Shown here: positions 1 through 60,598 of the stretch, one piece after another
How positions within the stretch are numbered: position 1 is the stretch's first letter
How the letters are laid out: each line of letters opens with the position of its first letter
Source of the DNA: Eledone cirrhosa
Taxonomy: Eukaryota
Reading direction: 5' to 3'
NCBI GenBank assembly: GCA_964016885.1
Contig: OZ024741.1
Location: forward strand, 389,608,001 to 389,672,000
Length of the DNA: 64,000 nt
Made by a program: the position numbers and the translations under genes
Notes under the pieces: generated by a model
The model's database searches: none
Seen by the model: the letters and a program-made list of their open reading frames with translations, nothing else
Told to the model about the DNA's origin: nothing

Positions 1-3000
1 ACTACAACAGTACCACTACTCTAGACTACGGTACTCACCACTACTACAACAGTACCACTACTCTAGACTACGGTACTCACCACTACTACAACAGTACCAC
101 TACTGTAGACTATGGTACTCACCACTACTACAACAGCACCACTACTGTAGACTACGGTACTCACCACTACTACAACAGTACCACTACTGTAGACTATGGT
201 ACTCACCACTACTACAACAGTACCACTACTCTAGACTACGGTACTCACCACTACTACAACAGTACCACTACTGTAGACTACGGTACTCACCACTACTACA
301 ACAGTACCACTACTCTAGACTACGGTACTCACCACTACTACAACAGTACCACTACTGTAGACTATGGTACTCACCACTACTACAACAATACCACTACTCT
401 AGACTACGGTACTCACCACTACTACAACAGTACCACTACTGTAGACTATGGTACTCACCACTAATACAACAGTACCACTACTGTAGACTACGCTACTCAC
501 CACTACTACAACAGTACCACTACTGTAGACTATGGTACTCACCACTACTACAACAGTACCACTACTGTAGACTATGGTACTCACCACTACTACAACAGTA
601 CCACTACTCTAGACTACGGTACTCACCACTACTACAACAGTACCACTACTCTAGACTACCGAACTCACCACTACTACAACAGTACCACTACTGTAGACTA
701 CGGTACTCACCACTACTACAACAGTACCACTACTGTAGACTATGGTACTCACCACTACTACAACAGTACCACTACTGTAGACTATGGTACTCACCACTAC
801 TACAACAGTACCACTACTGTAGACTATGGTACTCACCACTACTACAACAGTACCACTAATATAGACTATGGTACTCACCACTACTACAACAGTACCACTA
901 CTCTAGACTACGGTACTCACCACTTCTACAACAGTACCACTACTCTAGACTACGGTACTCACCACTACTACAACAGTACCACTACTCTAGACTACGGAAC
1001 TCACCACTACTACAACAGTACCACTACTCTAGACTACGGTACTCACCACTACTACAACAGTACCACTACACTAGACTACGGAACTCACCACTACTACAAC
1101 AGTACCACTACTGTAGACTATGGTACTCACCACTACTACAACAGTACCACTACTGTAGACTACGGTACTCACCACTACTACAACAGTACCACTACCGTAG
1201 ACTATGGTACTCACCACTACTACAACAGTACCACTACTGTAGACTACGCTACTCACCACAACTACAACAGTACCACTACTGTAGACTACGCTACTCACCA
1301 CTACTACAACAGTACCACTACTGTAGACTACGCTACTCACCACTACTACAACAGTACCACTACTGTAGACTATGGTACTCACCACTACTACAACAGTACC
1401 ACTACTGTAGACTACGGTACTCACCACTACTACAACAGTACCACTACCATAGACTATGGTACTCACCACTACTACAACAGTACCACTAATGTAGACTACG
1501 GTACTCACCACTACTACAACAGTACCACTACTGTAGACTATGCTACTCACCACTACTACAACAGTACCACCACTGTAGACTATGGTACTCACCACCACTA
1601 CAACAGTACCACTACTGTAGACTATGGTACTCACCACTACTACAACATTACCACTACTGTAGACTACGGTACTCACCACTACTACAACAGTACCACTACT
1701 GTAGACTACGGTACTCACCACTACTACAACATTACCACTACTGTAGACTATGGTACTCACCACTACTACAACAGTACCACTACTCTAGACTTTGGTACTC
1801 ACCACTACTACAACAGTACCACTACTGTAGACTATGGTACTCACCACTACTACAACAGTACCACTACTCTAGACTATGATACTCACCACTACTACAACAG
1901 TACCACTACTCTAGACTATGGTACTCACCACTAATACAACAGTACCACTACTGTAGACTACGGTACTCACCACTACTACAACAGTACAACTACTGTAGAC
2001 TATGGTACTCACCACTACTACAACAGCAACTCTACTGTAGACTATGGTACTTACCACTACTACAACAGTACCACTACTCTAGACTACGGTACTCACCACT
2101 ACTAAAACAGTACCACTACTGTAGACTACGGTACTCACCACTACTAAAACAGTACCACTACTGTAGACTACGGTACTCACCACTACTACAACAGCAACTC
2201 TACTGTAGACTATGGTACTCACCACTACTACAACAGCAACTCTACTGTAGACTATGGTACTCACCACTACTACAACAGTACCACTACTCTAGACTACGGT
2301 ACTCACCACTACTAAAACAGTACCACTACTCTAGACTACAGTACTCACCACTACTACAACAGTACCACTACTGTAGACTACGGTACTCACCACTACTACA
2401 ACAGTACCACTACTCTAGACTACGGTACTCACCACTACTACAACAGTACCACTACTCTAGACTACGGAACTCACCACTACTACAACAGTACCACTACTGT
2501 AGACTACGGTACTCACCACTACTACAACAGTACCACTACTGTAGACTATGGTACTCACCACTACTACAACAGTACCACTACTGTAGACTATGGTACTCAC
2601 CACTACTACAACAGTACCACTACTCTAGACTACGGTACTCACCACTACTACAACAGTACCACTACTGTAGACTACGGTACTCACCACTACTACAACAGTA
2701 CCACTACTCTAGACTACGGTACTCACCACTACTACAACAGTACCACTACTGTAGACTATGGTACTCACCACTACTACAACAATACCACTACTCTAGACTA
2801 CGGTACTCACCACTACTACAACAGTACCACTACTGTAGACTATGGTACTCACCACTAATACAACAGTACCACTACTGTAGACTACGCTACTCACCACTAC
2901 TACAACAGTACCACTACTGTAGACTATGGTACTCACCACTACTACAACAGTACCACTACTGTAGACTATGGTACTCACCACTACTACAACAGTACCACTA

Positions 3001-6000
3001 CTCTAGACTACGGTACTCACCACTACTACAACAGTACCACTACTCTAGACTACGGAACTCACCACTACTACAACAGTACCACTACTGTAGACTACGGTAC
3101 TCACCACTACTACAACAGTACCACTACTGTAGACTATGGTACTCACCACTACTACAACAGTACCACTACTGTAGACTATGGTACTCACCACTACTACAAC
3201 AGTACCACTACTGTAGACTATGGTACTCACCACTACTACAACAGTACCACTACTGTAGACTATGGTACTCACCACTACTACAACAGTACCACTAATATAG
3301 ACTATGGTACTCACCACTACTACAACAGTACCACTACTCTAGACTACGGTACTCACCACTACTACAACAGTACCACTACTCTAGACTACGGTACTCACCA
3401 CTACTACAACAGTACCACTACTCTAGACTACGGAACTCACCACTACTACAACAGTACCACTACTCTAGACTACGGTACTCACCACTACTACAACAGTACC
3501 ACTACTGTAGACTATGGTACTCACCACTACTACAACAGTACCACTACTGTAGACTATGGTACTCACCACTACTACAACAGTACCACTACTCTAGACTACG
3601 GTACTCACCACTACTACAACAGTACTACTACTGTAGACTATGGTACTCACCACTACTACAACAGTACCACTACTGTAGATTATGGTACTCACCACTACTA
3701 CAACAGTACCACTAATGTAGACTATGGTACTCACCACTACTACAACAGTACCACTACCGTAGACTATGGTACTCACCACTACTACAACAGTACCACTACT
3801 CTAGACTACGGTACTCACCACTACTACAACAGCAACTCTACTGTAGACTATGGTACTCACCACTACTACAACAGTACCACTACTCTAGACTACGGTACTC
3901 ACCACTAATACAACAGTACCACTACTCTAGACTACGGTACTCACCACTACTACAACAGTACCACTACTGTAGACTATGGTACTCACCACTACTACAACAG
4001 TACCACTACACTAGACTACGGTACTCACCACTACTACAACAGTACGACTACACTAGACTACGGAACTCACCACTACTACAACAGTAACACTACTGTAGAC
4101 TACGGTACTCACCACTACTACAACATTACCACTACTGTAGACTACGGTACTCACCACTACTACAACAGTACCATTACTGTAGACTATGGTACTCACCACT
4201 ACTACAACATTACCACTACTGTAGACTACGGTACTCACCACTACTACAACAGTACCACTACTGTAGACTATGGTACTCACCACTACTACAACAGTACCAC
4301 TACTCTAGACTATGGTACTCACCACTACTACAACAATACCACTACTCTAGACTACGGTACTCACCACTACTACAACAGTACCACTACTGTAGACTACGGT
4401 ACTCACCACTACTACAACAGCAACTCTACTGTAGACTATGGTACTCACCACTACTACAACAGCAACTCTACTGTAGACTATGGTACTTACCACTACTACA
4501 ACAGTACCACTACTCTAGACTACGGTACTCACCACTACTAAAACAGTACCACTACTGTAGACTACGATACTCACCACTACTACAACAGCAACTCTACTGT
4601 AGACTATGGTACTCACCACTACTACAACAGCAACTCTACTGTAGACTATGGTACTCACCACTACTACAACAGTACCACTACTCTAGACTACGGTACTCAC
4701 CACTACTAAAACAGTACCACTACTCTAGACTACAGTACTCACCACTACTACAACAGTACCACTACTGTAGACTACGGTACTCACCACTACTACAACAGTA
4801 CCACTACTCTAGACTACGGTACTCACCACTACTACAACAGTACCACTACTCTAGACTACGGTACTCACCACTACTACAACAGTACCACTACTGTAGACTA
4901 TGGTACTCACCACTACTACAACAGCACCACTACTGTAGACTACGGTACTCACCACTACTACAACAGTACCACTACTGTAGACTATGGTACTCACCACTAC
5001 TACAACAGTACCACTACTCTAGACTACGGTACTCACCACTACTACAACAGTACCACTACTGTAGACTACGGTACTCACCACTACTACAACAGTACCACTA
5101 CTCTAGACTACGGTACTCACCACTACTACAACAGTACCACTACTGTAGACTATGGTACTCACCACTACTACAACAATACCACTACTCTAGACTACGGTAC
5201 TCACCACTACTACAACAGTACCACTACTGTAGACTATGGTACTCACCACTAATACAACAGTACCACTACTGTAGACTACGCTACTCACCACTACTACAAC
5301 AGTACCACTACTGTAGACTATGGTACTCACCACTACTACAACAGTACCACTACTGTAGACTATGGTACTCACCACTACTACAACAGTACCACTACTCTAG
5401 ACTACGGTACTCACCACTACTACAACAGTACCACTACTCTAGACTACGGAACTCACCACTACTACAACAGTACCACTACTGTAGACTACGGTACTCACCA
5501 CTACTACAACAGTACCACTACTGTAGACTATGGTACTCACCACTACTACAACAGTACCACTACTGTAGACTATGGTACTCACCACTACTACAACAGTACC
5601 ACTACTGTAGACTATGGTACTCACCACTACTACAACAGTACCACTAATATAGACTATGGTACTCACCACTACTACAACAGTACCACTACTCTAGACTACG
5701 GTACTCACCACTTCTACAACAGTACCACTACTCTAGACTACGGTACTCACCACTACTACAACAGTACCACTACTCTAGACTACGGAACTCACCACTACTA
5801 CAACAGTACCACTACTCTAGACTACGGTACTCACCACTACTACAACAGTACCACTACACTAGACTACGGAACTCACCACTACTACAACAGTACCACTACT
5901 GTAGACTATGGTACTCACCACTACTACAACAGTACCACTACTGTAGACTACGGTACTCACCACTACTACAACAGTACCACTACCGTAGACTATGGTACTC

Positions 6001-9000
6001 ACCACTACTACAACAGTACCACTACTGTAGACTACGCTACTCACCACAACTACAACAGTACCACTACTGTAGACTACGCTACTCACCACTACTACAACAG
6101 TACCACTACTGTAGACTACGCTACTCACCACTACTACAACAGTACCACTACTGTAGACTATGGTACTCACCACTACTACAACAGTACCACTACTGTAGAC
6201 TACGGTACTCACCACTACTACAACAGTACCACTAATGTAGACTACGGTACTCACCACTACTACAACAGTACCACTACTGTAGACTATGCTACTCACCACT
6301 ACTACAACAGTACCACCACTGTAGACTATGGTACTCACCACCACTACAACAGTACCACTACTGTAGACTATGGTACTCACCACTACTACAACATTACCAC
6401 TACTGTAGACTACGGTACTCACCACTACTACAACAGTACCACTACTGTAGACTACGGTACTCACCACTACTACAACATTACCACTACTGTAGACTATGGT
6501 ACTCACCACTACTACAACAGTACCACTACTCTAGACTTTGGTACTCACCACTACTACAACAGTACCACTACTGTAGACTATGGTACTCACCACTACTACA
6601 ACAGTACCACTACTCTAGACTATGATACTCACCACTACTACAACAGTACCACTACTCTAGACTATGGTACTCACCACTAATACAACAGTACCACTACTGT
6701 AGACTACGGTACTCACCACTACTACAACAGTACAACTACTGTAGACTATGGTACTCACCACTACTACAACAGTACCACTACTGTAGACTACGGTACTCAC
6801 CACTACTACAACAGTACAACTACTGTAGACTATGGTACTCACCACTACTACAACAGCAACTCTACTGTAGACTATGGTACTCACCACTACTACAACAGCA
6901 ACTCTACTGTAGACTATGGTACTCACCACTACTACAACAGCAACTCTACTGTAGACTATGGTACTCACCACTACTACAACAGTACCACTACTCTAGACTA
7001 CGGTACTCACCACTACTACAACAGTAACAATACTCTAGACTATGGTACTCACCACTACTACAACAGTAGCACTACTGTAGACTATGGTACTCACTACTAC
7101 TACAACAGTACCACTACTCTAGACTATGGTACTCACCACTACTACAACAGTACCACTACTGTAGACTATGGTACTCACCACTACTACAACAGTACCACTA
7201 CTGTAGACTATGGTACTCACCACTACTACCACAGTACCACTACTCTAGACTACGGTACTCACCACTACTACAACAGTACAACTACTGTAGACTACGGTAC
7301 TCACCACTACTACAACAGTACCACTGCTGTAGACTATGGTACTGACCACTACTACAACAGTACCACTACTCTAGACTACGGTACTCACCACTACTACAAC
7401 AGTACCACTAATGTAGACTATGGTACTCACCACTACTACAACAGTACCACTACTGTAGACTACGGTACTCACCACTACTACAACAGTACCACTACTGTAG
7501 ACTACGGTTCTCACCACTACTACAACAGTACCACTACTGTAGACTACGGTTCTCACCACTACTACAACAGTACCACTACTCTAGTCTACGGTACTCACCA
7601 CTACTACAACAGTACCACCACTGTAGACTATGGTACTCACCACCACTACAACAGTACCACTACTCTAGACTATGGTACTCACCACTACTACAACAGTACC
7701 ACTACTGTAGACTATGGTACTCACCATAACTACAACAGTACCACTACTGTAGACTATGGTACTCACCACTACTACAACAGTACCACTACTGTAGACTACG
7801 GTACTCACCACAACTACAACAGTACCACTACTGTAGACTATGGTACTCACCATAACTACAACAGTACCACTACTGTAGACTACGGTACTCACCACTACTA
7901 CAACAGTACCACTACTCTAGACTATGGTACTCACCACTACTACAACAGTACCACTACTGTAGACTACGGTACTCACCACAACTACAACAGTACCACTACT
8001 GTAGACTATGGTACTCACCACTACTACAACAGTACCACTACTGTAGACTACGCTACTCACCACTACTACAACAGTACCACTACTGTAGACTACGGTACTC
8101 ACCACTACTACAACAGTACCACTACTGTAGACTACGGTACTCACCACTACTACAACAGTACCACTACTCTAGACTATGGTACTCACCACTACTACAACAG
8201 TACCACTACTGTAGACTACGGTACTCACCACAACTACAACAGTACCACTACTGTAGACTACGGTTCTCACCACAACTACAACAGTACCACTACTGTAGAC
8301 TACGGTACTCACCACAACTACAACAGTACCACTACTGTAGACTATGGTACTCACCACTACTACAACAGTACCACTACTGTAGACTACGCTACTCACCACT
8401 ACTACAACAGTACCACTGCTGTAGACTACGCTACTCACCACTACTACAACAGTACCACTACTGTAGACTATGGTACTCACCACTACTACAACAGTACCAC
8501 TACTGTAGACTACGCTACTCACCACTACTACAACAGTACCACTACTGTAGACTACGGTACTCACCACTACTACAACAGTACCACTACTGTAGACTACGGT
8601 ACTCACCACTACTACAACAGTACCACTACTGTAGACTATGGTACTCACCACTACTACAACAGTACCACTACTGTAGACTACGGTACTCACCACTACTACA
8701 ACAGCAACTCTACTGTAGACTATGGTACTCACCACTACTACAACAGTACCACTACTGTAGACTACGGTACTCACCACTACTACAACAGTACCACTACTGT
8801 AGACTACGGTTCTCACCACTACTACAACAGTACCACTACTGTAGACTACGGTACTCACCACTACTACAACAGTACCACTACTGTAGACTACGGTACTCAC
8901 CACTACTACAACAGTACCACTGCTGTAGACTATGGTACTCACCACTACTACAACAGAACCACTACTGTAGACTATGGTACTCACCACTACTACAACAGTA

Positions 9001-12000
9001 CCACTACTGTAGACTATGGTACTCACCACTACTACAACAGTACCACTACTGTAGACTATGGTACTCACCACTACTACAACAGTACCACTACTGTAGACTA
9101 CGGTACTCACCACTACTACAACAGCAACTCTACTGTAGACTATGGTACTCACCACTACTACAACAGTACCACTACTGTAGACTACGGTACTCACCACTAC
9201 TACAACAGTACCACTACTGTAGACTACGGTTCTCACCACTACTACAACAGTACCACTACTGTAGACTACGGTACTCACCACTACTACAACAGTACCACTA
9301 CTGTAGACTATGGTACTCACCACTACTACAACAGTACCACTACTGTAGACTATGGTACTCACCACTACTACAACAGTACCACTACTGTAGACTACGGTAC
9401 TCACCACTACTACAACAGTACCACTACTGTAGACTACGGTACTCACCACTACTACAACAGTACCACTACTGTAGACTACGGTACTCACCACTACTACAAC
9501 AGCAATTCTACTGTAGACTATGGTACTCACCACTACTACAACAGCAACTCTACTGTAGACTATGGTACTCACCACTACTACAACAGTACCACTACTCTAG
9601 ACTACGGTACTCACCACTACTAAAACAGTACCACTACTCTAGACTATGGTACTCACCACTACTACAACAGTACCACTACTGTAGGCTATGGTACTCACCA
9701 CTACTACAACAGTACCACTACTCTAGACTACGGTACTCACCACTACTACAACAGTACCACTACTGCAGACTATGGTACTCACCACTACTACAACAGTACA
9801 ACTACTGTAGACTATGGTACTCACCACTACTACAACAGTACCACTACTCTAGACTACAGTACTCACCACTACTACAACAGTACCACTACTGTAGACTACG
9901 CTACTCACCACTACTACAACAGTACCACTACTGTAGACTATGGTACTCACCACTACTACAACAGTACAACTACTGTAGACTATGGTACTCACCACTACTA
10001 CAACAGTACCACTACTGTAGACTACGGTACTCACCACTACTACAACAGCAACTCTACTGTAGACTATGGTACTCACCACTACTACAACAGTACCACTACT
10101 GTAGACTACGGTACTCACCACTACTACAACAGTACCACTACTGTAGACTACGGTACTCACCACTACTACAACAGTACCACTACTGTAGACTACGGTACTC
10201 ACCACTACTACAACAGTACCACTACTGTAGACTATGGTACTCACCACTACTACAACAGTACCACTACTGTAGACTATGGTACTCACCACTACTACAACAG
10301 TACCACTACTGTAGACTACGGTACTCACCACTACTACAACAGCAACTCTACTGTAGACTATGGTACTCACCACTACTACAACAGTACCACTACTGTAGAC
10401 TACGGTACTCACCACTACTACAACAGTACCACTACTGTAGACTACGGTACTCACCACTACTACAACAGTACCACTACTGTAGACTATGGTACTCACCACT
10501 ACTACAACAGTACCACTACTGTAGACTACTGTACTCACCACTACTACAACAGTACCACTACTGTAGACTATGGTACTCACCACTACTACAACAGTACCAC
10601 TACTGTAGACTACGGTACTCACCACTACTACAACAGCAACTCTACTGTAGACTATGGTACTCACCACTACTACAACAGTACCACTACTGTAGACTACGGT
10701 ACTCACCACTACTACAACAGTACCACTACTGTAGGCTACGGTACTCACCACTACTACAACAGTACCACTACTGTAGACTATGGTACTCACCACTACTACA
10801 ACAGTACCACTACTGTAGACTACGGTACTCACCACTACTACAACAGCAACTCTACTGTAGACTATGGTACTCACCACTACTACAACAGTACCACTACTGT
10901 AGACTACGGTACTCACCACTACTACAACAGTACCACTACTGTAGACTACGGTTCTCACCACTACTACAACAGTACCACTACTGTAGACTATGGTACTCAC
11001 CACTACTACAACAGTACCACTACTGTAGACTATGGTACTCACCACTACTACAACAGTACCACTACTCTAGACTATGGTACTCACCACTACTACAACAGTA
11101 CCACTACTGTAGACTACGCTACTCACCACTACTACAACAGTACCACTACTGTAGACTACGGTACTCACCACTACTACAACAGTACCACTACTGTAGACTA
11201 TGGTACTCACCACTACTACAACAGTACCACTACTGTAGACTACGGTACTCACCACTACTACAACAGTACCACTACTGTAGACTATGGTACTCACCACTAC
11301 TACAACAGTACCACTACTGTAGACTACGGTACTCACCACTACTACAACAGCAACTCTACTGTAGACTATGGTACTCACCACTACTACAACAGTACCACTA
11401 CTGTAGACTACGGTATTCACCACTACTACAACAGCAACTCTACTGTAGACTACGGTACTCACCACTACTACAACAGTACCACTACTCTAGACTACGGTAC
11501 TCACCACTACTACAACAGTACAACTACTGTAGACTACGGTACTCACCACTACTACAACAGCAACTCTACTGTAGACTATGGTACTCACCACTTCTACAAC
11601 AGCAACTCTACTGTAGACTATGGTACTCACCACTACTACAACAGCAACTCTACTGTAGACTATGGTACTCACCACTACTACAACAATACCACTACTCTAG
11701 ACTACGGTACTCACCACTACTACAACAGTACCACTACTGTAGACTATGGTACTCACCACTACTACAACAGTACCACTACTGTAGACTATGGTACTCACCA
11801 CTACTAAAACAGTACCACTACTCTAGACTACGGTACTCACCACTACTACAACAGTACCACTACTGTAGACTACGGTACTCACCACTACTACAACAGCAAT
11901 TCTACTGTAGACTATGGTACTCACCACTACTACAACAGCAACTCTACTGTAGACTGTGGTACTCACCACTACTACAACAGTACCACTACTCTAGACTACG

Positions 12001-15000
12001 GTACTCACCACTACTAAAACAGTACCACTACTCTAGACTACAGTACTCACCACTACTACAACAGTACCACTACTGTAGACTACGGTACTCACCACTACTA
12101 CAACAGTACCACTACTCTAGACTATGGTACTCACCACTACTACAACAGTACCACTACTGTAGGCTATGGTACTCACCACTACTACAACAGTACCACTACT
12201 CTAGACTACGGTACTCACCACTACTACAACAGTACCACTACTGCAGACTATGGTACTCACCACTACTACAACAGTACAACTACTGTAGACTATGGTACTC
12301 ACCACTACTACAACAGTACCACTACTCTAGACTACAGTACTCACCACTACTACAACAGTACCACTACTGTAGACTACGCTACTCACCACTACTACAACAG
12401 TACCACTACTGTAGACTATGGTACTCACCACTACTACAACAGTACAACTACTGTAGACTATGGTACTCACCACTACTACAACAGTACCACTACTGTAGAC
12501 TACGGTACTCACCACTACTACAACAGTACCACTACTGTAGACTATGGTACTCACCACTACTACAACAGTACCACTACTCTAGACTACGGTACTCACCACT
12601 ACTACAACAGTACCACTAATGTAGACTATGGTACTCACCACTACTACAACAGTACCACTACTCTAGACTACGGTACTCACCACTACTACAACAGTACCAC
12701 TACTCTAGACAACGGAACTCACCACAACTACAACAGTACCACTACTCTAGACTACGGTACTCACCACTACTACAACAGTACCACTACACTAGACTACGGA
12801 ACTCACCACTACTACAACAGTACCACTACTGTAGACTATGGTACTCACCACTACTACAACAGTACCACTACTGTAGACTACGGTACTCACCACTACTACA
12901 ACAGTACCACTACTGTAGACTACGCTACTCACCACTACTACAACAGTACCACTACTGTAGACTACGCTACTCACAACTACTACAGCAGTACCACTACTCT
13001 AGACTATGGTACTCACCACTACTACAACAGTACCACTACTCTAGACTATGGTACTCACCACTACTACAACAGTAGCACTACTGTAGACTATGGTACTCAC
13101 CACTACTACAACAGCACCACTACTGTAGACTACGGTACTCACCACTAATACAACAGTACCACTACTGTAGACTACGGTACTCACCACTACTACAACAGTA
13201 GCACTACTGTAGACTATGGTACTCACTACTACTACAACAGTACCACTACTCTAGACTATGGTACTCACCACTACTACAACAGTACCACTACTCTAGACTA
13301 TGGAACTCACCACTACTACAACAGTACCACTACTGTAGTCTATGGTACTCACCACTACTACAACAGCACCACTACTGTAGACTACGGTACTCACCACTAC
13401 TACAGCAGTACCAGTACTGTAGACTACGGTACTCACCACTACTACAACAGCACCACTACTGTAGACTACGGTACTCACCACCACTACAACAGTACCACTA
13501 CTGTAGACTACGGTACTCACCACTACTACAACAGTACCACTACTGTAGACTATGGTACTCACCACTACTACAACAGTACCACTACTCTAGACTACGGTAC
13601 TCACCACTACTACAACAGTACCACTAATGTAGACTATGGTACTCACCACTACTACAACGGTACCACTACTCTAGACTACGGTACTCACCACTACTACAAC
13701 AGTACCACTACTGTAGACTATGGTACTCACCACTACTACAACAGTACCACTACTGTAGACTATGGTACTCACCACTACTACAACAGTACCACTACTGTAG
13801 ACTACGGTACTCACCACTACTACAGCAGTACCACTACCGTAGACTATGGTACTCACCACTACTACAACAGTACCACTACTGTAGACTACGGTACTCACCA
13901 CTACTACAGCAGTACCACTACTGTAGACTACGGTACTCACCACTACTACAACAGTACAACTACTGTAGACTATGGTACTCACCACTACTACAACAGTACC
14001 ACTACTGTAGACTATGGTACTCACCACTACTACAACAGTACCACTACTGTAGACTATGGTACTCACCACTACTACAACAGTACCACTACTCTAGACTACG
14101 GTATTGACCACTACTACAATAGTACCACTACTCTAGACTACGGTACTCACCACTACTACAACAGTACAACTACTGTAGACTACGGTACTCACCACTACTA
14201 CAACAGTACCACTACTCTAGACTACGGTACTCACCACTACTACAACAGTACAACTACTGTAGACTACGGTACTCACCACTACTACAACAGTACCACTACT
14301 CTAGACTACGGTACTCACCACTACTACAACAGTACAACTACTGTAGACTACGGTACTCACCACTACTACAACAGTACCACTACTCTAGACTACGGAACTC
14401 ACCACTACTACAACAGTACCACTACTGCAGACTATGGTACTCACCACTACTACAACAGTACCACTACTGTAGACTACGGTACTCACCACTACTACAACAG
14501 TACCACTACCGTAGACTATGGTACTCACCATTACTACAACAGTACCACTACAGTAGACTATGGTACTCACCACTACTACAACAGTACCACTACTGTAGAC
14601 TATGGTACTCACCACTACTACAACAGTACCACTACAGTAGACTATGGTACTCACCACTACTACAACAGTACCACTAATGTAGACTACGGTACTCACCACT
14701 ACTACAACAGTACAACTACTGTAGACTATGGTACTCACCACTACTACAACAGTACCACTACTGTAGACTATGGTACTCACCACTACTACAACAGTACCAC
14801 TACAGTAGACTATGGTACTCACCACTACTACAACAGTACCACTAATGTAGACTACGGTACTCACCACTACTACAACAGTACAACTACTGTAGACTATGGT
14901 ACTCACCACTACTACAACAGTACCACTACTCTAGACTATGGTACTCACCACTACTACAACGGTACCACTACTCTAGACTACGCTACTCACCACTACTACA

Positions 15001-18000
15001 ACAGTACCACTACTCTAGACTATGGTACTCACCACTACTACAACAGTACCACTACTGTAGACTACGCTACTCACCACAACTACAACAGTACCACTACTGT
15101 AGACTACGCTACTCACAACTACTACAACAGTACCACTACTGTAGACTACGGTACTCACCACTACTACAACAGTACCACTACTGTAGACTACGCTACTCAC
15201 CACAACTACAACAGTACCACTTCTGTAGACTACGGTACTCACCACTACTACAACAGTACCACTACTGTAGACTACGCTACTCACAACTACTACAACAGTA
15301 CCACTACTGTAGACTATGGTACTCACCACTACTACAACAGTACCACTACTGTAGACTACGGTACTCACCACAACTACAACAGTACCACTACTGTAGACTA
15401 CGCTACTCACAACTACTACAACAGTACCACTACTGTAGACTACGCTACTCACCACAACTACAACAGTACCACTACTGTAGACTACGCTACTCACAACTAC
15501 TACAACAGTACCACTACTGTAGACTACGCTACTCACCACTACTACAACAGTACCACTACTGTAGACTACGGTACTCACCACTACTACAACAGTACCACTA
15601 ATGTAGACTACGGTACTCACCACTACTACAACAGTACCACTACCGTAGACTATGGTACTCACCACTACTACAACAGTACCACTAATGTAGACTACGGTAC
15701 TCACCACTACTACAAAAGTACCACTACTGTAGACTACGGTACTCACCACTACTACAACAGTACCACTACTGTAGACTACGGTACTCACCACTACTACAAC
15801 ATTACCACTACTGTAGACTATGGTACTCACCACTACTACAACAGTACCACTACTCTAGACTACGGTACTCACCACTACTACAACAGTACCACTACTCTAG
15901 ACTATGGTACTCACCACTACTACAACAGTACCACTACTCTAGACTACGGTACTCACCACTACTACAACAGTACCACTACTCTAGACTATGGTACTCACCA
16001 CTACTACAACAGTACCACTACTCTAGACTACGCTACTCACCACTACTACAACAGTACCACCACTGTAGACTATGGTACTCACCACCACTACAACAGTACC
16101 ACTACTGTAGACTATGGTACTCACCACTACTACAAAAGTACCACTACTGTAGACTACGGTACTCACCACTACTACAACAGTACCACTACTGTAGACTACG
16201 GTACTCACCACTACTACAACATTACCACTACTGTAGACTATGGTACTCACCACTACTACAACAGTACCACTACTCTAGACTATGGTACTCACCACTACTA
16301 CAACAGTACCACTACTGTAGACTATGGTACTCACCACTACTACAACAGTACCACTACTGTAGACTATGGTACTCACCACTACTACAACAGTACCACTACT
16401 CTAGACTATGGTACTCACCACTACTACAACAGTACCACCACTGTAGACTATGGTACTCACCACTACTACAACAGTACCACTACTCTAGACTAGGTACTCA
16501 CCACTACTACAACAGTACCACTACTGTAGACTATGGTACTCACCACTACTACAACAGTACCACTACTCTAGACTATGGTACTCACCACTACTACAACAGT
16601 ACCACTACTGTAGACTATGGTACTCACCACTACTACAACAGTACCACTACTCTAGACTATGGTACTCACCACTACTACAACAGTACCACTACTCTAGACT
16701 GTGGTACTCACCACTACTACAACAGTACCACTACTGTAGACTACGGTACTCACCACTACTACAACAGTACCATTACTCTAGACTATGGTACTCACCACTA
16801 CTACAACAGCACCACTACTGTAGACTACGGTACTCACCACTACTACAGCAGTACCACTACTGTAGACTACGGTACTCACCACTACTACAACAGCACCACT
16901 ACTGTAGACTATGGTACTCACCACTACTACAACAGTACCACTACTCTAGACTACGGTACTCACCACTACTACAACAGTACAACTACTGTAGACTATGGTA
17001 CTCACCACTACTACAACAGTACCACTAATGTAGACTATGGTACTCACCACTACTACAACAGTACCACTGCTGTAGACTATGGTACTCACCACTACTACAA
17101 CAGTACAACTACTGTAGACTATGGTACTCACCACTACTACAGCAGTACCACTACTGTAGACTACGGTACTCACCACTACTACAACAGTACCACTAATGTA
17201 GACTATGGTACTCACCACTACTACAACGGTACCACTACTCTAGACTACGGTACTCACCACTACTACAACAGTACAACTACTGTAGACTATGGTACTCACC
17301 ACTACTACAACAGTACCACTACTCTAGACTACGGTACTCACCACTACTACAACAGTACCACTACTGTAGACTAGGCTACTCACCACTACTACAACAGTAC
17401 CACTACTGTAGACTATGGTACTCACCACTACTACAACAGTACCACTACTCTAGACTATGGTACTCACCACTACTACAACAGTACCACTACTGTAGACTAC
17501 GGTACTCACCACTACTACAACAGTACCACTACTGTAGACTATGCTACTCACCACTACTACAACAGTACCACTACTGTAGACTATGGTACTCACCACTACT
17601 ACAACAGTACCACTACTCTAGACTACGGTACTCACCACTACTACAACAGTACCACTACTGTAGACTATGGTACTCACCACTACTACAACAGTACCACTAC
17701 TGTAGACTACGGTACTCACCACTTCTACAACAGTACCACTACTGTAGACTACGGTACTCACCACTACTACAACAGTACCACTACTGTAGACTACGGTACT
17801 CACCACTACTACAACAGTACCACTACTGTAGACTATGGTACTCACCAATACTGTAGACTACGGTACTCACCACTACTACAACAGTACCACTACTGTAGAC
17901 TACGGTACTCACCACTACTACAACAGTACCACTACTGTAGACTATGGTACTCACTACTACTACAACAGTACCACTACTGTAGACTATGGTACTCATCACT

Positions 18001-21000
18001 ACTACTACAGTACCACTACTCTAGACTACGGTACTCACCACTACTACAACAGTACCACTACTGTAGACTACGGTACTCACCACTACTGCAACAGTGCCAC
18101 TACTGTAGACTACGGTACTCACCACTACTACAACAGTACCACTACTCTAGACTATGGTACTCACCACTACTACAACAGTACCACTACTGTAGACTATGGT
18201 ACTCACCACTACTACAACAGTACCACTACTCTAGACTATGGTACTCACCACTACTACAACAGTACCACTACTCTAGACTATGGTACTCACCACTACTACA
18301 ACAGTACCACTACTGTAGACTATGGTACTCACCACCACTACAACAGTACCACTACTGTAGACTACGGTACTCACCACTACTACAACAGTACCACTACTCT
18401 AGACTATGGTACTCACCACTACTGTAGACTATGGTACTCACCACTACTACAACAGTACCACTACTCTAGACTATGGAACTCACCACTACTACAACAGTAC
18501 CACTACTCTAGACTACGGTACTCACCACTACTACAACAGTACCACTACTGTAGACTATGGTACTCACCACTACTGTAGACTACGGTACTCACCACTACTA
18601 CAACAGTACCACTACTGTAGACTATGGTACTCACTACTACTACAACAGTACCACTACTGTAGACTATGGTACTCACCACTACTGTAGACTACGGTACTCA
18701 CCACTACTACAACAGTACCACTACTGTAGACTATGGTACTCACCACTACTACAACAGTACCACTACTCTAGACTATGGTACTCACTACTACTACAACAGT
18801 ACCACTACTGTAGACTATGGTACTCACCACTACTGTAGACTACGGTACTCACCACTACTACAACAGTACCACTACTGTAGACTATGGTACTCACCACTAC
18901 TGTAGACTACGGTACTCACCACTACTACAACAGTACCACTACTGTAGACTATGGTACTCACCACTACTACAACAGTACCACTACTCTAGACTATGGTACT
19001 CACTACTACTACAACAGTACCACTACTGTAGACTATGGTACTCACCACTACTGTAGACTACGGTACTCACCACTACTACAACAGTACCACTACTGTAGAC
19101 TATGGTACTCACCACTACTGTAGACTACGGTACTCACCACTACTACAACAGTACCACTGCTGTAGACTATGGTACTCACCACTACTGTAGACTATGGTAC
19201 TCACCACTACTACAACAGTACCACTACTCTAGACTACGGTACTCACCACTACTACAACAGTACCACTACTGTAGACTATGGTACTCACCACTACTGTAGA
19301 CTACGGTACTCACCACTACTACAACAGTACCACTACTGTAGACTATGGTACTCACCACTACTACAACAGTACCACTACTCTAGACTACGGTACTCACCAC
19401 TACTACAACAGTACCACTACTGTAGACTATGGTACTCACCACTACTGTAGACTACGGTACTCACCACTACTACAACAGTACCACTACTGTAGACTATGGT
19501 ACTCACCACTACTACAACAGTACCACTACTCTAGACTACGGTACTCACCACTACTACAACAGTACCACTACTGTAGACTACGGTACTCACCACTACTACA
19601 ACAGTACCACTACTCTAGACTATGGTACTCACCACTACTACAACAGTACCACTACTGTAGACTATGGTACTCACCACTACTACAACAGTACCACTACTGT
19701 AGACTATGGTACTCACCACTACTACAACAGTACCACTACTCTAGACTATGGTACTCACCACTACTACAACAGTACCACTACTGTAGACTATGGTACTCAC
19801 CACCACTACAACAGTACCACTACTGTAGACTACGGTACTCACGACTACTACAACAGTACCACTACTCTAGACTATGGTACTCACCACTACTGTAGACTAT
19901 GGTACTCACCACTACTACAACAGTACCACTACTCTAGACTATGGTACTCACCACTACTACAACAGTACCACTACTCTAGACTACGGTACTCACCACTACT
20001 ACAACAGTACCACTACTCTAGCCTACGGTACTCACCACTACTACAACAGTACAACTACTGTAGACTACGGTACTCACCACTACTACAACAGTACCACTAC
20101 TGTAGACTATGGTACTCACCACTACTGTAGACTACGGTACTCACCACTACTACAACAGTACCACTACTGTAGACTATGGTACTCACTACTACTACAACAG
20201 TACCACTACTGTAGACTATGGTACTCACCACTACTACTACAGTACCACTACTCTAGACTACGGTACTCACCACTACTACAACAGTACCACTACTGTAGAC
20301 TACGGTACTCACCACTACTACAACAGTACCACTACTGTAGACTATGGTACTCACCACTACTGCAACAGTACCACTACTGTAGACTACGGTACTCACCACT
20401 ACTACAACAGTACCACTACTCTAGACTATGGTACTCACCACTACTACAACAGTACCACTACTGTAGACTATGGTACTCACCACTACTACAACAGTACCAC
20501 TACTGTAGACTATGGTACTCACCACTACTACAACAGTACCACTACTCTAGACTATGGTACTCACCACTACTACAACAGTACCACTACTGTAGACTATGGT
20601 ACTCACCACTACTACAACAGTACCACCACTGTAGACTATGGTACTCACCACCACTACAACAGTACCACTACTGTAGACTATGGTACTCACCACTACTACA
20701 ACAGTACCACTACTGTAGACTATGGTACTCACCACTACTACAACAGTACCACTACTGTAGACTACGGTACTCACCACTACTACAACAGTACCACTACTCT
20801 AGACTACAGTACTCACCACTACTACAACAGTACCACTACTGTAGACTACGGTACTCACCACTTCTACAACAGTACCACTACTGTAGACTACGGTACTCAC
20901 CACTACTACAACAGTACCACTACTGTAGACTACGGTACTCACCACTACTACAACAGTACCACTACTGTAGACTATGGTACTCACCAATACTGTAGACTAC

Positions 21001-23382
21001 GGTACTCACCACTACTACAACAGTACCACTACTGTAGACTACGGTACTCACCACTACTACAACAGTACCACTACTGTAGACTATGGTACTCACTACTACT
21101 ACAACAGTACCACTACTGTAGACTATGGTACTCACCACTACTACTACAGTACCACTACTCTAGACTACGGTACTCACCACTACTACAACAGTACCACTAC
21201 TGTAGACTACGGTACTCACCACTACTACAACTGTACCACTACTGTAGACTGTGGTACTCACCACTACTGCAACAGTACCACTACTGTAGACTACGGTACT
21301 CACCACTACTACAACAGTACCACTACTCTAGACTATGGTACTCACCACTACTACAACAGTACCACTACTGTAGACTATGGTACTCACCACCACTACAACA
21401 GTACCACTACTGCAGACTACGGTACTCACCACTACTACAACAGTACCACTACTCTAGACTATGGTACTCACCACTACTGTAGACTATGGTACTCACCACT
21501 ACTACAACAGTACCACTACTCTAGACTATGGTACTCACCACTACTACAACAGTACCACTACTCTAGACTACGGTACTCACCACTACTACAACAGTACCAC
21601 TACTCTAGCCTACGGTACTCACCACTACTACAACAGTACAACTACTGTAGACTACGGTACTCACCACTACTACAACAGTACCACTACTGTAGACTATGGT
21701 ACTCACCACTACTACAACAGTACCACTACTGTAGACTACGCTACTCACCACTACTACAACAGTACCACTACTCTAGACTATGGTACTCACTACTACTACA
21801 ACAGTACTACTACTGTAGACTATGGTACTCACCACTACTACTACAGTACCACTACTCTAGACTACGGTACTCACCACTACTACAACAGTACCACTACTGT
21901 AGACTACGGTACTCACCACTACTACAACAGTACCACTACTGTAGACTATGGTACTCACCACTACTGCAACAGTACCACTACTGTAGACTACGGTACTCAC
22001 CACTACTACAACAGTACCACTACTCTAGACTATGGTACTCACCACTACTACAACAGTACCACTACTGTAGACTATGGTACTCACCACTACTACAACAGTA
22101 CCACTACTGTAGACTATGGTACTCACCACTACTACAACAGTACCACTACTCTAGACTATGGTACTCACCACTACTACAACTGTACCACTACTGTAGACTA
22201 TGGTACTCACCACCACTACAACAGTACCACTACTGTAGACTACGGTACTCACCACTACTACAACAGTACCACTACTCTAGACTATGGTACTCACCACTAC
22301 TGTAGACTATGGTACTCACCACTACTACAACAGTACCACTACTCTAGACTATGGTACTCACCACTACTACAACAGTACCACCACTGTAGACTATGGTACT
22401 CACCACCACTACAACAGTACCACTACTGTAGACTATGGTACTCACCACTACTACAACAGTACCACTACTGTAGACTATGGTACTCACCTCTACTACAACA
22501 GTACCACTACTGTAGACTACGGTACTCACCACTACTACAACAGTACCACTACTCTAGACTACAGTACTCACCACTACTACAACAGTACCACTACTGTAGA
22601 CTACGGTACTCACCACTACTACAACAGTACCACTACTGTAGACTATGGTACTCACTACTACTACAACAGTACCACTACTGTAGACTATGGTACTCACCAC
22701 TACTACAACAGTACCACTACTCTAGACTACGGTATTCACCACTACTACAACAGTACCACTACTGTAGACTATGGTACTCACCACTACTACAACAGTACCA
22801 CTACTCTAGACTATGGTACTCACCACCACTACAACAGTACCACTACTGTAGACTATGGTACTCACCACTACTACAACAGTACCACTACTGTAGACTACGG
22901 TACTCACCACTACTACAACAGTACCACTACTCTAGACTATGGTACTCACCACTACTACAACAGTACCACTACTCTAGACTATGGTACTCACCACCACTAC
23001 AACAGTACCACTACTCTAGACTATGGTACTCACCACTACTACAACAGTACCACTACTGTAGACTACGGTACTCACCACTACTACAACAGTACCACTACTC
23101 TAGACTATGGTACTCACCACTACTACAACAGTACCACTACTGTAGACTATGGTACTCACCACCACTACAACAGTACCACTACTCTAGACTATGGTACTCA
23201 CCACTACTACAACAGTACCACTACTGTAGACTATGGTACTCACCACTACTACAACAGTACCACTACTCTAGACTATGGTACTCACCACTACTACAACAGT
23301 ACCACTATTGTAGACTATGGTACTCACCACTACTACAACAGTACCACTACTCTAGACTATGGTACTCACCACCACTACAACA
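1..23382. repeat. 42-bp tandem satellite, about 550-560 units, running off the left window edge; consensus ACTACAACAGTACCACTACT(G/C)TAGACTA(C/T)GGTACTCACCACT
   Basis: Direct reading shows an uninterrupted 42-bp period with point variants, a 1-bp deletion near 16492 and about 16 shortened 25-bp units between 17835 and 22310. The array ends at ...ACTACAACA 23382. Confidence 0.99.
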
Positions 23383-23413
23383 AGAGTAAGAGTAATATGT
23401 TGCTATATCTTAC

Positions 23414-23483
23414 CTTACACTTAAACGTCTTCATGTCTAACAATTGGTAATCAAAGCGATCCACAATATTTTTCATCCAATCC
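23414..23483 (-). CDS. Host gene coding exon F (70 nt, phase 2 to 0): (E)DWMKNIVDRFDYQLLDMKTFKCK
   Basis: Acceptor ttttttttctttag|G and donor AAG|gtaaga. It completes the GA left by exon 37279-37185 (GAG) with no stop. Confidence 0.85.
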
Positions 23484-33615: not shown

Positions 33616-33993
33616 TAGTGGTTAGAGCATTGGCCTTGCAATTGAAAGGTTGTGAGTTCAATTATCAGGCCGGGTGATGTGTTGTTTCCTTGAGCAAGAC
33701 ACTTTATTTCACATTGCTCCAGTTTACTCAGCTGTAGAAATGAGATGATAGGACTGGAGTCCCTATCATTCCACTGCAAAGTGGTCGTAGAGGTGCCACG
33801 GCAAAAAAGCACCCATCACTCACTGTAAAGTGGACGTGTAGGTGCCACGGCAAAAAAGCACCCAGCACTCACTGTAAATGAGGTTGGTGTTAGGAAGGGC
33901 ATCTAGCTGTAGAAATCAAGCCAGAATCAGTTCCCGTCCCACCCTTGCAAGCAGGGAAAAAGCGGACGTAAAATCATGATGATCATGATGATA
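33616..33993 (+). mobile_element. tRNA-derived CORE-like SINE with RTE-type 3' tail
   Basis: A box TAGTGGTTAG, B box GAGTTCAATT, CCTTGAGCAAGACACTTTA core and a 49-bp internal tandem duplication. Tail CCCTTGCAAGCAGGGAAAAAGCGGACGTAAAA(TGA)n. Confidence 0.75.
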
Positions 33994-34315
33994 TATATAT
34001 ATATATCTGTCACATAATCAGTCTATCTATCTGTATCTCACTCATCACACACTTTCTCTTTCTGTATATATATATATATGGTAGTTGTGGTGGTGGCGGC
34101 AATATTTAAAAGAAATCAGTTTTAAATAAACGATAAAATTATTTATATTTAATAAGAGTTATGAAATTTAGTACATAAATTATGTAATATTCATTCATTA
34201 TTTATTCAAGTACCAGTAATGTACTGAGTAATTGCTGGCCTTGTGCAAAAAGTAGAAACAATTATTTATTCAAAGTAATCAAACTTATTTTACTAACTGG
34301 ATTAAAAGAAATAAA

Positions 34316-37046: not shown

Positions 37047-37184
37047 ACTGTAAATTTTCATTGTGATCTGCTTACTAGTAAAGATACTATAAACACTTGA
37101 ATTAGCAAACTTGTTTCTAAATATTTTCGGCTAAATCATTACAGTATGTTAAAAGTTATTCAATAACTGTAGATGTATACTCAC

Positions 37185-37279
37185 TCAAGAGATGTTATAC
37201 GGTTAGATAAAGCTGCTAAAATGGCAAACAGCTTGAAGTCTGCTCCGTCCTCAATATTGTAGCCTGTCATTTCAATTAT
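37185..37279 (-). CDS. Host gene coding exon E (95 nt, phase 0 to 2): IIEMTGYNIEDGADFKLFAILAALSNRITSL
   Basis: Acceptor gtattttgtag|ATA and donor CTTGA|gtgagt; phases fit both neighbouring exons. Confidence 0.88.
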
Positions 37280-46467: not shown

Positions 46468-46572
46468 CCTATACAGATATTCTTCTTTAGATGCTGTTAA
46501 TTGATTGTTTATCGACCTTAATCCCAGCATCATTTCCTGTGTTGTCAACCAACCTTTTTTATCAACATCCCC
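46468..46572 (-). CDS. Host gene coding exon D (105 nt, phase 0 to 0): GDVDKKGWLTTQEMMLGLRSINNQLTASKEEYLYR, EF-hand loop
   Basis: Acceptor ttttgttttatttatag|GGG and donor AGG|gtaagt; 12-residue loop D-V-D-K-K-G-W-L-T-T-Q-E. Confidence 0.92.
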
Positions 46573-47858: not shown

Positions 47859-47929
47859 CATTTCAAATATTCTTTTGTATACATCCCAGTTCTCTTTGTT
47901 AAAGATACAATACTTGGCAAGGAAGCCAT
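47859..47929 (-). CDS. Host gene coding exon C (71 nt, phase 1 to 0): (Y)GFLAKYCIFNKENWDVYKRIFEM
   Basis: Acceptor ttgctatctctcaaccaag|AT and donor ATG|gtttgt. Supplies the entering helix (YKRIFEM) of the EF-hand in exon D. Confidence 0.85.
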
Positions 47930-53784: not shown

Positions 53785-54084
53785 AGTCCTCGAAATGGGG
53801 TCCTCGGGTTTCATTCTTGGCCATCTTCAACATTTTCTTTTGATTCATTTTATCCATCAGCTTCTTTCGCCTTCTTTCTGCTGCTTCTAATGGGTCAAAA
53901 TATTCCATGTGTCCCCGAAATTTACCATATTTCAATGACTCCACCGTTGCTGTGGACTTAATACTTTGGATTGTTGACTTATTTTTTCTCTTCTTGTAGT
54001 TTTCGGTGTTGAGACTAGCCATTGTAGGGAGTTGGTTATATGATGGAGTTGCATTTAATTCCTCTTCTTTTTCTTCTGAATCTG
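53785..54084 (-). CDS. Host gene coding exon B (300 nt, phase 1 to 1): (T)DSEEKEEELNATPSY...FDPLEAAERRRKKLMDK...RGPHFED
   Basis: NAGNAG acceptor tttgcag|CAG and donor GACT|gtaagt. T+AT gives Tyr at the junction with exon C. Confidence 0.82.
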
Positions 54085-54867: not shown

Positions 54868-55470
54868 TATCATCATCATCATTTAACGTCTATCTTCCAT
54901 GTTAGCATAGGTTAGATGGGAATTGTCCCACTTGAAGCAAAATTGATCGGGTGACTGTCTCGCTCGTATAGGACTGTATCTGGCAGGTTTTTTATGGCTG
55001 GATGCCCTTTCTAACACCAACCACATTTACTGTGTAGACTGGGAGCATTTTTACCTTGTCTCCTACTCGACCACTTTACAGTGTGGACTGGATGCTTTTT
55101 TGTCGTGACACCTACACAACTTCTTTAGTTTGGACTGGATGTTGTGGTACCAACATAACTTTACAGAGGAAAGGTGGTGTTGGTGGCAGTGGGAGGATGG
55201 AGTAGGAATAGTGGATTGGGTGTATATTTGGTTAAGAGGTGCCTACTGACTGTAGGTTTAACTTTGTACATAGGGAAGGCAGGTCTTCTGTATTACTGCG
55301 TAGCACCAAAGGTCTCGATCCAGTGACATTGTCTTAGAGAGGTGTAAGTGTGTAAGGCTGGAATTATCAAATCGTCCCAAGTTTTTCATGGTCTACCTAC
55401 TTCATAACTTCCATCAATTTTGATCGCCCTGCACTTTTTTTATACAGCTGTCATTTTTCATGCGCTTCTA
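54868..55470 (-). mobile_element. RTE family B 3' end fragment
   Basis: Reverse complement resembles 36480-37040, including the (CAT)n tail. Confidence 0.8.
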
Positions 55471-57670: not shown

Positions 57671-57812
57671 TGTCATTTGAAGAAATGAAGACATTTTCAT
57701 CAGTGACGTTTTCTGTAATTCCAGGTTTGGACTCTGGCACTGACTGTTTGACTCTTTCCTTTACAGATTTGGATAACTGCTTCAACGCGACTGTCTTTCG
57801 GTTCAAAGGAAG
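57671..57812 (-). CDS. Host gene coding exon A (142 nt, phase 0 to 1): LPLNRKTVALKQLSKSVKERVKQSVPESKPGITENVTDENVFISSND
   Basis: Acceptor tttattttcatttcag|CTT and donor GACA|gtcagt; phase matches exon B; non-TE island between repeats. Confidence 0.68.
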
Positions 57813-60525: not shown

Positions 60526-60590
<65 letters not shown>

Positions 60591-60598
60591 TATTATTT

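Follow-up and report, generated by a model that had tools for sequence, protein, structure and literature searches.

A 42-nt satellite in the last intron of a conserved gene

The window analyzed here, a 64,000-nt stretch of the Eledone cirrhosa genome (assembly GCA_964016885.1, contig OZ024741.1, positions 389,608,001 to 389,672,000), contains part of an intact protein-coding gene on the minus strand and part of a 42-nt satellite that fills the last intron of this gene. Window positions 1 to 23382 form a single tandem array on the minus strand, for which Tandem Repeats Finder (TRF) gave 554 copies with 92% matches. The far end of the array was located at window coordinate -59476 (genome position 389548524), 59 kb beyond the window, and the whole array comprises 82.8 kb and 1,978 units. 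A preliminary description, made from the letters of the window, had counted about 550 units; this number was confirmed within the window and falls short of the full array. The last intron measures 84,928 nt, of which approximately 2.1 kb remains when the array is subtracted.

The host gene is a single-copy, uncharacterized, lophotrochozoan gene and the ortholog of Octopus sinensis LOC115219818. The O. sinensis protein gave 12 matches, all in order on the minus strand at this one locus, and relatives of the host protein were detected in other molluscs and in nemerteans. The protein end encoded by the penultimate and last exons is 86% identical to the Octopus vulgaris and O. sinensis proteins, and the most conserved part of the protein is the C-terminal portion encoded by the last exon. 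The exons flanking the array are in frame and joined by GT-AG, and their identity to O. vulgaris is 100% on one side and 85% on the other. The peptide of the penultimate exon runs directly into the xLWEC motif, which starts the last exon, in 69 of 71 homologs, and another one reaches this motif from an earlier exon. The authentic donor at 23413 and the acceptor at window -61514 are thus fixed by the homologs, which join the penultimate-exon peptide straight to xLWEC. The C-terminus of the host protein is likely EF-hand-like; the Atlas matches of the ortholog C-terminus, which serve as a lead only, were mostly EF-hand clusters at 0.88-0.90, and Pfam and PDB searches with the exon peptides gave no match.

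The unit is exactly 42 nt long in 1,949 of the 1,978 copies, with the two copies of a 9-nt internal repeat (AGTAGTGGT) lying at columns 19 and 36. A total of 269 distinct unit types were found, with a mean of 1.55 differences from the consensus. The divergence between units did not grow appreciably with their spacing (2.46 mismatches at 1 unit and 2.66 at 1,000 units), and the longest runs of identical units reached 38, indicating that variants spread in blocks. The first unit starts at column 30 (column 27 with a 3-nt insertion) and the last ends at column 26, and the array thus holds a near-whole number of units, with TTAC at both flanks. These ends would fit tandem duplication in place, a closure with a chance probability of roughly 10-15%. 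Long open frames of up to 643 aa extend over the array on the plus strand because the unit equals 14 codons. A coding role of the array was rejected, as the sole open sense frame is stopped by a C>G variant in 32% of the units.

The possibility that the array was invented or grossly over-expanded during assembly was also considered. Its length has no independent measure, and the three runs available come from one sample, perhaps that of the assembly itself. Against this, a 365-nt contig crosses the exon-array junction in all three runs, and at the far end a 321-nt contig covers 29 nt of the array. The summed repeat depth exceeded that of the junction contig approximately 1,200-1,600-fold (a ratio that is not a copy number), no N occurs within the 264 kb read around the locus, and the number of distinct unit types likewise speaks against such an artefact. 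Since the contigs span the near junction and reach into the far one, the array is regarded as real, and an assembly origin as extremely improbable. No array-less allele was seen in the contigs of the three runs, which show presence only.

Exact-match counts over the 3.0-Gb genome showed that the satellite is private to one intron at one locus. All 997 matches of a 33-mer and all 1,613 matches of an 18-mer were inside the array, and no exact copy of either was found elsewhere in the assembly. A BLAST search returned 191 places, and all 150 of those listed were within the array; diverged copies could remain. For the orientation of further intronic copies, raised as a check in the preliminary description, no such copy was found. 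The features of the locus are collected in Table 1.

Table 1. Features of the array and its host gene (window coordinates; a slash marks the splice junction)
Feature	Position	Strand	Remark
42-nt array, in-window portion	1..23382	-	561 unit starts; each unit with G/GTGAGTA
Only in-window unit with GT lost (ATGAGT)	17991..17996	-	
First pseudo-donor GTG/GTGAGT, GT at 23369	23364..23372	-	predicted U1 duplex -10.6 kcal/mol
In-frame TAG, intron +37..+39	23375..23377	-	ends 5, 47, and 89 nt before the junctions of mimics 1, 2, and 3
Unique first 31 nt of last intron	23383..23413	-	no significant similarity to unit
Authentic donor AAG/GTAAGA, GT at 23413	23408..23416	-	predicted U1 duplex -9.5 kcal/mol; protein homology
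Penultimate exon, 70 nt, DWMKNIVDRFDYQLLDMKTFKCK	23414..23483	-	protein homology
Host-gene upstream exon	37185..37279	-	real donor TGA/GTGAGT (37184), hexamer same as mimic
Host-gene upstream exon	46468..46572	-	homology
Host-gene upstream exon	47859..47929	-	homology
Host-gene upstream exon	53785..54084	-	homology
Host-gene upstream exon	57671..57812	-	weak homology; GT-AG and phase used to infer boundaries
Last exon, 76 aa + stop	-61515..-61745	-	outside window

Donor mimics and their predicted pairing with U1

As stated in the preliminary description, nearly every unit presents a mimic of a 5' splice site on the transcribed strand. GTRAGT was found at the unit start in 548 of the 561 in-window units and on the transcribed strand in 1,930 of all 1,978 units. 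Below position 23400, the minus strand contains GTGAGT 550 times and GTAAGT twice, and the plus strand contains neither. The GTAAGT variants noted earlier are therefore present but rare (6 of 1,978). The YAG trinucleotides upstream of the mimic were likewise confirmed, at a distance of 2 nt in 524 and of 5 nt in 552 of the in-window units (1,876 and 1,938 in the whole array), as was the single loss of the GT within the window, at 17996; overall, the GT is lost in 8 units. The first mimic lies 44 nt past the real donor, and its use would retain 12 codons followed by TAG, in agreement with the UAG stop described before.

Donor strength was assessed as the predicted energy of the duplex with U1 small nuclear RNA (snRNA), with no pseudouridine terms. 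The U1 of this genome has the canonical 5' end, and its genes lie in tandem at C2:180973544-180995099 and on C1128 with a period of approximately 2,674 nt (42 scored matches). The mimic forms 8 pairs with U1 (-10.6 kcal/mol) and the real donor 7 pairs (-9.5 kcal/mol), and the 12 inferred real donors of the host gene range from -3.2 to -10.3 kcal/mol, all weaker than the mimic. The earlier claim that the mimic matches the consensus better than the real donor holds for positions +1 to +6; with the exon side included, the two duplexes are similar. The real donor has AAG on the exon side and A at +3, a base shared by 8 of the 12 inferred donors, and G at +3 occurs in one of the 12. The preceding intron of the host gene begins with GTGAGT, which is a real donor. 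By their predicted U1 pairing, the units are supported as credible 5' splice sites.

The repeat RNA folds better than its shuffles (z=-5.1; window 23150-23450, minus strand). The cost of opening positions -1 to +6 averaged 5.7 kcal/mol (0.7-9.4; 60 sampled units) versus 1.7-8.6 kcal/mol in the 12 real donors, and that of mimic 1 was 1-5 kcal/mol, not above the cost for the real donor. Masking by hairpins was accordingly rejected as the cause of the presumed mimic silence, as the opening costs overlap those of real donors. Cephalopods carry out adenosine-to-inosine editing of RNA, and the self-complementary repeat RNA could be a substrate for it.

Because all copies descend from one unit, the chance of such a motif must be judged on a single unit and not on 550; moreover, this unit was singled out among very many arrays. 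GTRAGT appeared in 5.8% of 5,000 mononucleotide shuffles and in 13.9% of 5,000 dinucleotide shuffles of the unit, and a U1 site of equal strength in 2.5% and 5.1%, respectively, of 1,500. Among circularized 42-mers from the flanking sequence, the corresponding values were 1.4% (of 20,000) for GTRAGT and 0.7% (of 3,000) for an equally strong U1 site.

Origin of the unit and comparison with ECM29

The introns of another gene of the same genome, ECM29 (C9:10430858-10661645), contain many similar arrays. A total of 31 array rows were found, or 28 arrays after removal of 3 low-complexity rows, with a combined length of 63.9 kb and periods of 20-60 nt, 14 of the 28 falling at 40-50 nt. Six of the 28 start within 100 nt of the donor end of an exon, and 4 of these 6 begin inside the intron; none of the 28 starts within 100 nt of an acceptor. 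Sense-strand GTRAGT was present in 3 rows, corresponding to two arrays that are both copies of an exon end. On the evidence of the ECM29 rows, an array right after a donor is ordinary in this genome, but non-junction units seldom carry a strong donor.

One of the two donor arrays has a 45-nt unit in 335 copies (C9, 10605412-10620312), and its donor is weakened by a +4 A>T change in 31% of 280 clean units. The other, also junction-born, has a 41-nt unit with TAG/GTGAGT in 115 copies arranged in two blocks (C9:10591760-10599221) and yielded 13 mutation events, too few for a comparison of donor conservation. The ECM29 arrays suggest a genome-wide process of sequence stuttering (see below) with a donor-side bias. 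In addition, 49-nt tandem repeats at window positions 33772-33878 and 55018-55141 resemble the 47-48-nt ECM29 arrays, pointing to a dispersed minisatellite-seeding element, unlike the single-locus unit.

The 42-nt unit might itself descend from an old duplication of the exon junction, as in the human F7 minisatellite and the amphioxus "mirages", and have since drifted from the real junction. The distance of 44 nt from the donor to the first mimic is near the period of 42 nt, junction-born donor arrays of 41 and 45 nt exist in ECM29, and such an origin would account for the presence of a strong donor. However, when the real junction and the unit were aligned at the anchored boundary, 22% of 126 background G/GTRAG sites scored as well, and the likeness was not significant. 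The ECM29 units also copy exon ends near letter for letter, which the 42-nt unit does not. Since the likeness between junction and unit is at background level, the array lacks the feature that defines the F7 and mirage repeats, although it likely behaves as they do, and a junction origin is considered unlikely.

The preceding intron opens (window 37163-37184, minus strand) with 19 nt whose likeness to the unit start goes further than the hexamer common to both (p=0.02 given GTGAGT, with a higher score at 1 of the 58 other background sites). This likeness, found post hoc, is probably due to chance, and it marks a possible source of the unit 13.8 kb away.

Mutation pattern and interpretation of the array

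Beyond the size, position, single locus, strand, and U1 complementarity of the satellite and the reading frame kept across the intron, its history and behavior can be proposed as follows. With a probability of about 0.62, this single-locus 42-nt satellite would have grown in place from a stretch near the start of an approximately 2-kb intron that by chance contained a latent donor, with the real donor kept in use and the approximately 1,930 copies mostly silent. Slippage or microhomology may have given rise to the unit locally, with later block duplication and homogenization. The upstream-most donor would be chosen as at human F7, and the donor motif would be neutral. The downstream pseudo-sites of F7 are reported to be functional, yet they are not used even when their complementarity to U1 is raised (PMC1557585).

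Several observations weigh against this interpretation. The predicted U1 pairing of the mimic is slightly above that of the real donor, chance seldom yields a site of such strength (in 0.7% of flanking 42-mers and 2.5-5.1% of shuffles), and in ECM29 all 25 non-junction rows stay weaker than -9.5 kcal/mol on both strands. The pseudo-sites nearest to the donor are used in 2 of the 5 human precedents (PMC1557585), and scanning at F7 was shown in mammalian cells, not in molluscs. The mutation pattern of the units, with events counted as changes on the minimum spanning tree of unit types, also adds to these points. Of the 10 GTs of the unit, that of the mimic has changed least (4 events versus 7-16), positions +1 to +6 rank 2 of 42 (base-matched p=0.016 for events and 0.004 for frequency), the GT deficit appears both outside (p=0.006) and inside (p=0.02) the window, and T at +2 is unchanged in all 1,978 units. 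Furthermore, the internal control described next consists of one pair and has little power.

The second copy of the 9-nt internal repeat ends in the G/GT of the mimic, and its first copy provides a non-donor twin (-4.1 kcal/mol). The events over GTGGT numbered 10, 4, 15, 4, and 0 in the mimic versus 10, 3, 12, 5, and 2 in the twin, giving 19 events over G/GT in both. For the GT alone, the difference was 4 versus 7 (p=0.27), or 2-4 versus 6-7 with random tie-breaks. The G at -1 showed 15 events, the highest of any G. The -1 to +7 window ranked 15 of 42 on events, and the -3 to +6 window ranked 1 of 42 on frequency and 21 of 42 on events; the non-donor columns 11-16 were equally cold in frequency. 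Units without the GT have been copied on, as 5 of them share a second variant. The check put forward in the preliminary description, that GTGAGT should mutate less often than other positions if it were selected, thus gave a low count at the GT, but the non-donor twin mutates alike and selection is unsupported. We read the GT deficit as a reflection of sequence context, and the mimic motif is likely neutral.

Possible use of the mimics

The first one to three mimics may nevertheless be used at a measurable level, as in the human genes 6-16 and CBS; this tentative alternative, which is compatible with a neutral origin, is less probable than silence of the copies. The duplex of the mimic is predicted to be stronger than that of the real donor, mimic 1 is cheap to open, and GTGAGT is really used one intron upstream in the host gene. 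Both 6-16 and CBS use the two pseudo-sites closest to the authentic donor, whereas F7, LAMIN B2, and PDGF are reported to use the authentic site only (PMC1557585). The exon-side AAG and the +3 A of the real donor, in line with most donors of the host gene, also speak against leakage, and truncation would delete the most conserved part of the protein. Use of mimics 1 and 2 would yield a protein without the conserved last 76 residues, and mimics from the third onward would give targets of nonsense-mediated mRNA decay (NMD). The proposal that the array is a source of NMD isoforms is unsupported for mimics 1 and 2, for which the in-frame stop would lie 5 and 47 nt upstream of the last junction; such isoforms would likely escape NMD because, in mammals, stops within 50-55 nt of the last junction do so (PMC1854916). 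For mimic 3, the stop lies 89 nt before the junction.

Stepwise or recursive splicing along the array, also proposed earlier, finds a basis in the YAG trinucleotides 2 and 5 nt before most mimics. Ratchet points, however, consist of an acceptor and a donor in juxtaposition (PMC8605326), and the 82.8-kb array has neither a YAG/GT nor a pyrimidine run of at least 8, and YTRAY occurs in it twice. The pyrimidine content at -18 to -4 was 6-7 of 15 before the repeat YAGs and 8-12 of 15 before six real acceptors, and a splicing track of this kind is regarded as extremely unlikely. The suggestion of telescripting inside the array found no support either, since the array contains no AATAAA or ATTAAA and telescripting thus has no target there. 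The last units could matter for the 7 AATAAA/ATTAAA hexamers in the 2,038 nt downstream of the array.

It is plausible, at about even odds, that U1 would load as a by-product on the repeat RNA while this is being transcribed. The donors of the array far exceed its acceptors (1,930 GTRAGT and no acceptor with a pyrimidine tract), and their density is approximately 47 GTRAGT per 2 kb. The chicken LL2R RNA, by a different predictor, has more than 5 predicted donors per 2 kb, and snRNAs accumulate on it (bioRxiv 10.64898/2026.03.19.712899). A U1-rich body, which is possible, would follow from the sequence alone, with no need for selection. That the array is instead a selected landing site for U1, either as an LL2R-like condensate or as support for RNA polymerase II (Pol II) through the 85-kb intron, with the motif kept or the array tolerated for this purpose, is unlikely. 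Its density of donors compared with LL2R, the low mutation counts at the mimic GT, and the aid that U1 gives to elongation in long introns (as cited in PMC12216098) argue for selection. On the other side, the context-matched twin accounts for the GT deficit, the -1 G is not protected, and no poly(A) hexamer is available for suppression inside the array. One unit in 1,978 would be almost invisible to selection, the array is confined to a single locus, and the donor copies in ECM29 decay freely. In its fullest form, which we consider equally improbable, this proposal would have the intron RNA of a coding gene, with approximately 1,900 U1 sites, gather small nuclear ribonucleoproteins (snRNPs) into a locus-bound body and keep Pol II going through 83 kb; octopod intronic arrays would then be largest where the unit has a sense-strand donor, with U1 binding filtering expansion.

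Other open frames at the locus

Two open frames lie antisense inside host introns on the plus strand, at 34256-36691 (811 aa) and 60590-63400 (936 aa), and both resemble, in their motifs, reverse transcriptases of long interspersed nuclear elements (LINEs). Beyond the window, a 424-aa frame of tandem C2H2 zinc fingers with an 84-nt period (window -74683..-73412, plus strand) is convergent with the 3' end of the host gene.

Comparison with known systems

The literature covered, on octopus intronic satellites and minisatellites and on donor-bearing satellites with U1, most subscription papers lying outside this scope, contained no description of this repeat. The statement in the preliminary description that the repeat is undescribed thus stands for the sequence but not for the kind, which is known from F7, 6-16, CBS, mirages, and sequence stuttering. 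To our knowledge, the satellites in the introns of Drosophila kl-3 and kl-5 are simple repeats without donor motifs. Like the present intron, these gigantic introns owe a many-fold increase in length to satellites, but on a megabase scale (PMC6508621, PMC11207136).

The closest systems are the human exon-intron minisatellites with 5' pseudo-sites, namely the 37-bp variable number tandem repeat (VNTR) of F7 IVS7, 6-16 (25 pseudo-sites), CBS IVS13, LAMIN B2, and PDGF (PMC1557585). Like the array, they consist of head-to-tail donor copies right after an authentic donor, with a unit of approximately 40 nt. In the F7-type set, however, the first unit spans the boundary and the copies equal the real donor, whereas the unit of the array is intronic and unlike the junction, and 5-25 units are present in the human genes versus 1,978 here. 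The mirages of amphioxus (PMC3087553), an invertebrate, are tandem repeats at gene boundaries that contain splice signals, undergo concerted evolution and, as reported, leave regular splicing undisturbed. In mirages, it is the boundary itself that is duplicated, and the number of units is small (3-6 in BflGb6); neither applies to the array.

The intronic type of sequence stuttering on chicken dot chromosomes (PMC12954441) comprises locally born repeats of tens of bases that are private to one intron and leave exons intact. The array resembles it in these respects, being private to one intron between intact flanking exons. Stuttering has been described for birds and as imperfect tandems, while the array is regular and has a strong donor in each unit without exon sequence. 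The LL2R RNA is, like the array, a tandem-repeat RNA rich in donors and poor in acceptors and poly(A) signals, but it is non-coding, is driven by a retrotransposon promoter, and has had its recruitment of snRNPs imaged (bioRxiv 10.64898/2026.03.19.712899). The array is known from sequence, is approximately 9-fold denser by motif count, and is not an independent non-coding unit, as it lies inside the last intron of a coding gene (no separate promoter search was made).

In summary, the novelty of the array is its scale together with a donor-bearing unit that is no copy of a junction; the kind itself is known. Tandem pseudo-donor arrays of human genes hold 5-25 copies, and the present one raises this number to nearly 2,000; it is also a further sign that units of 40-50 nt expand inside introns of this octopod genome, as on the dot chromosomes of chicken. 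With one real donor facing approximately 1,930 predicted equals, the locus puts the choice of the upstream-most donor to a natural stress test. Should U1 load on the array, a body like that of LL2R would be seeded from the intron of a coding gene.

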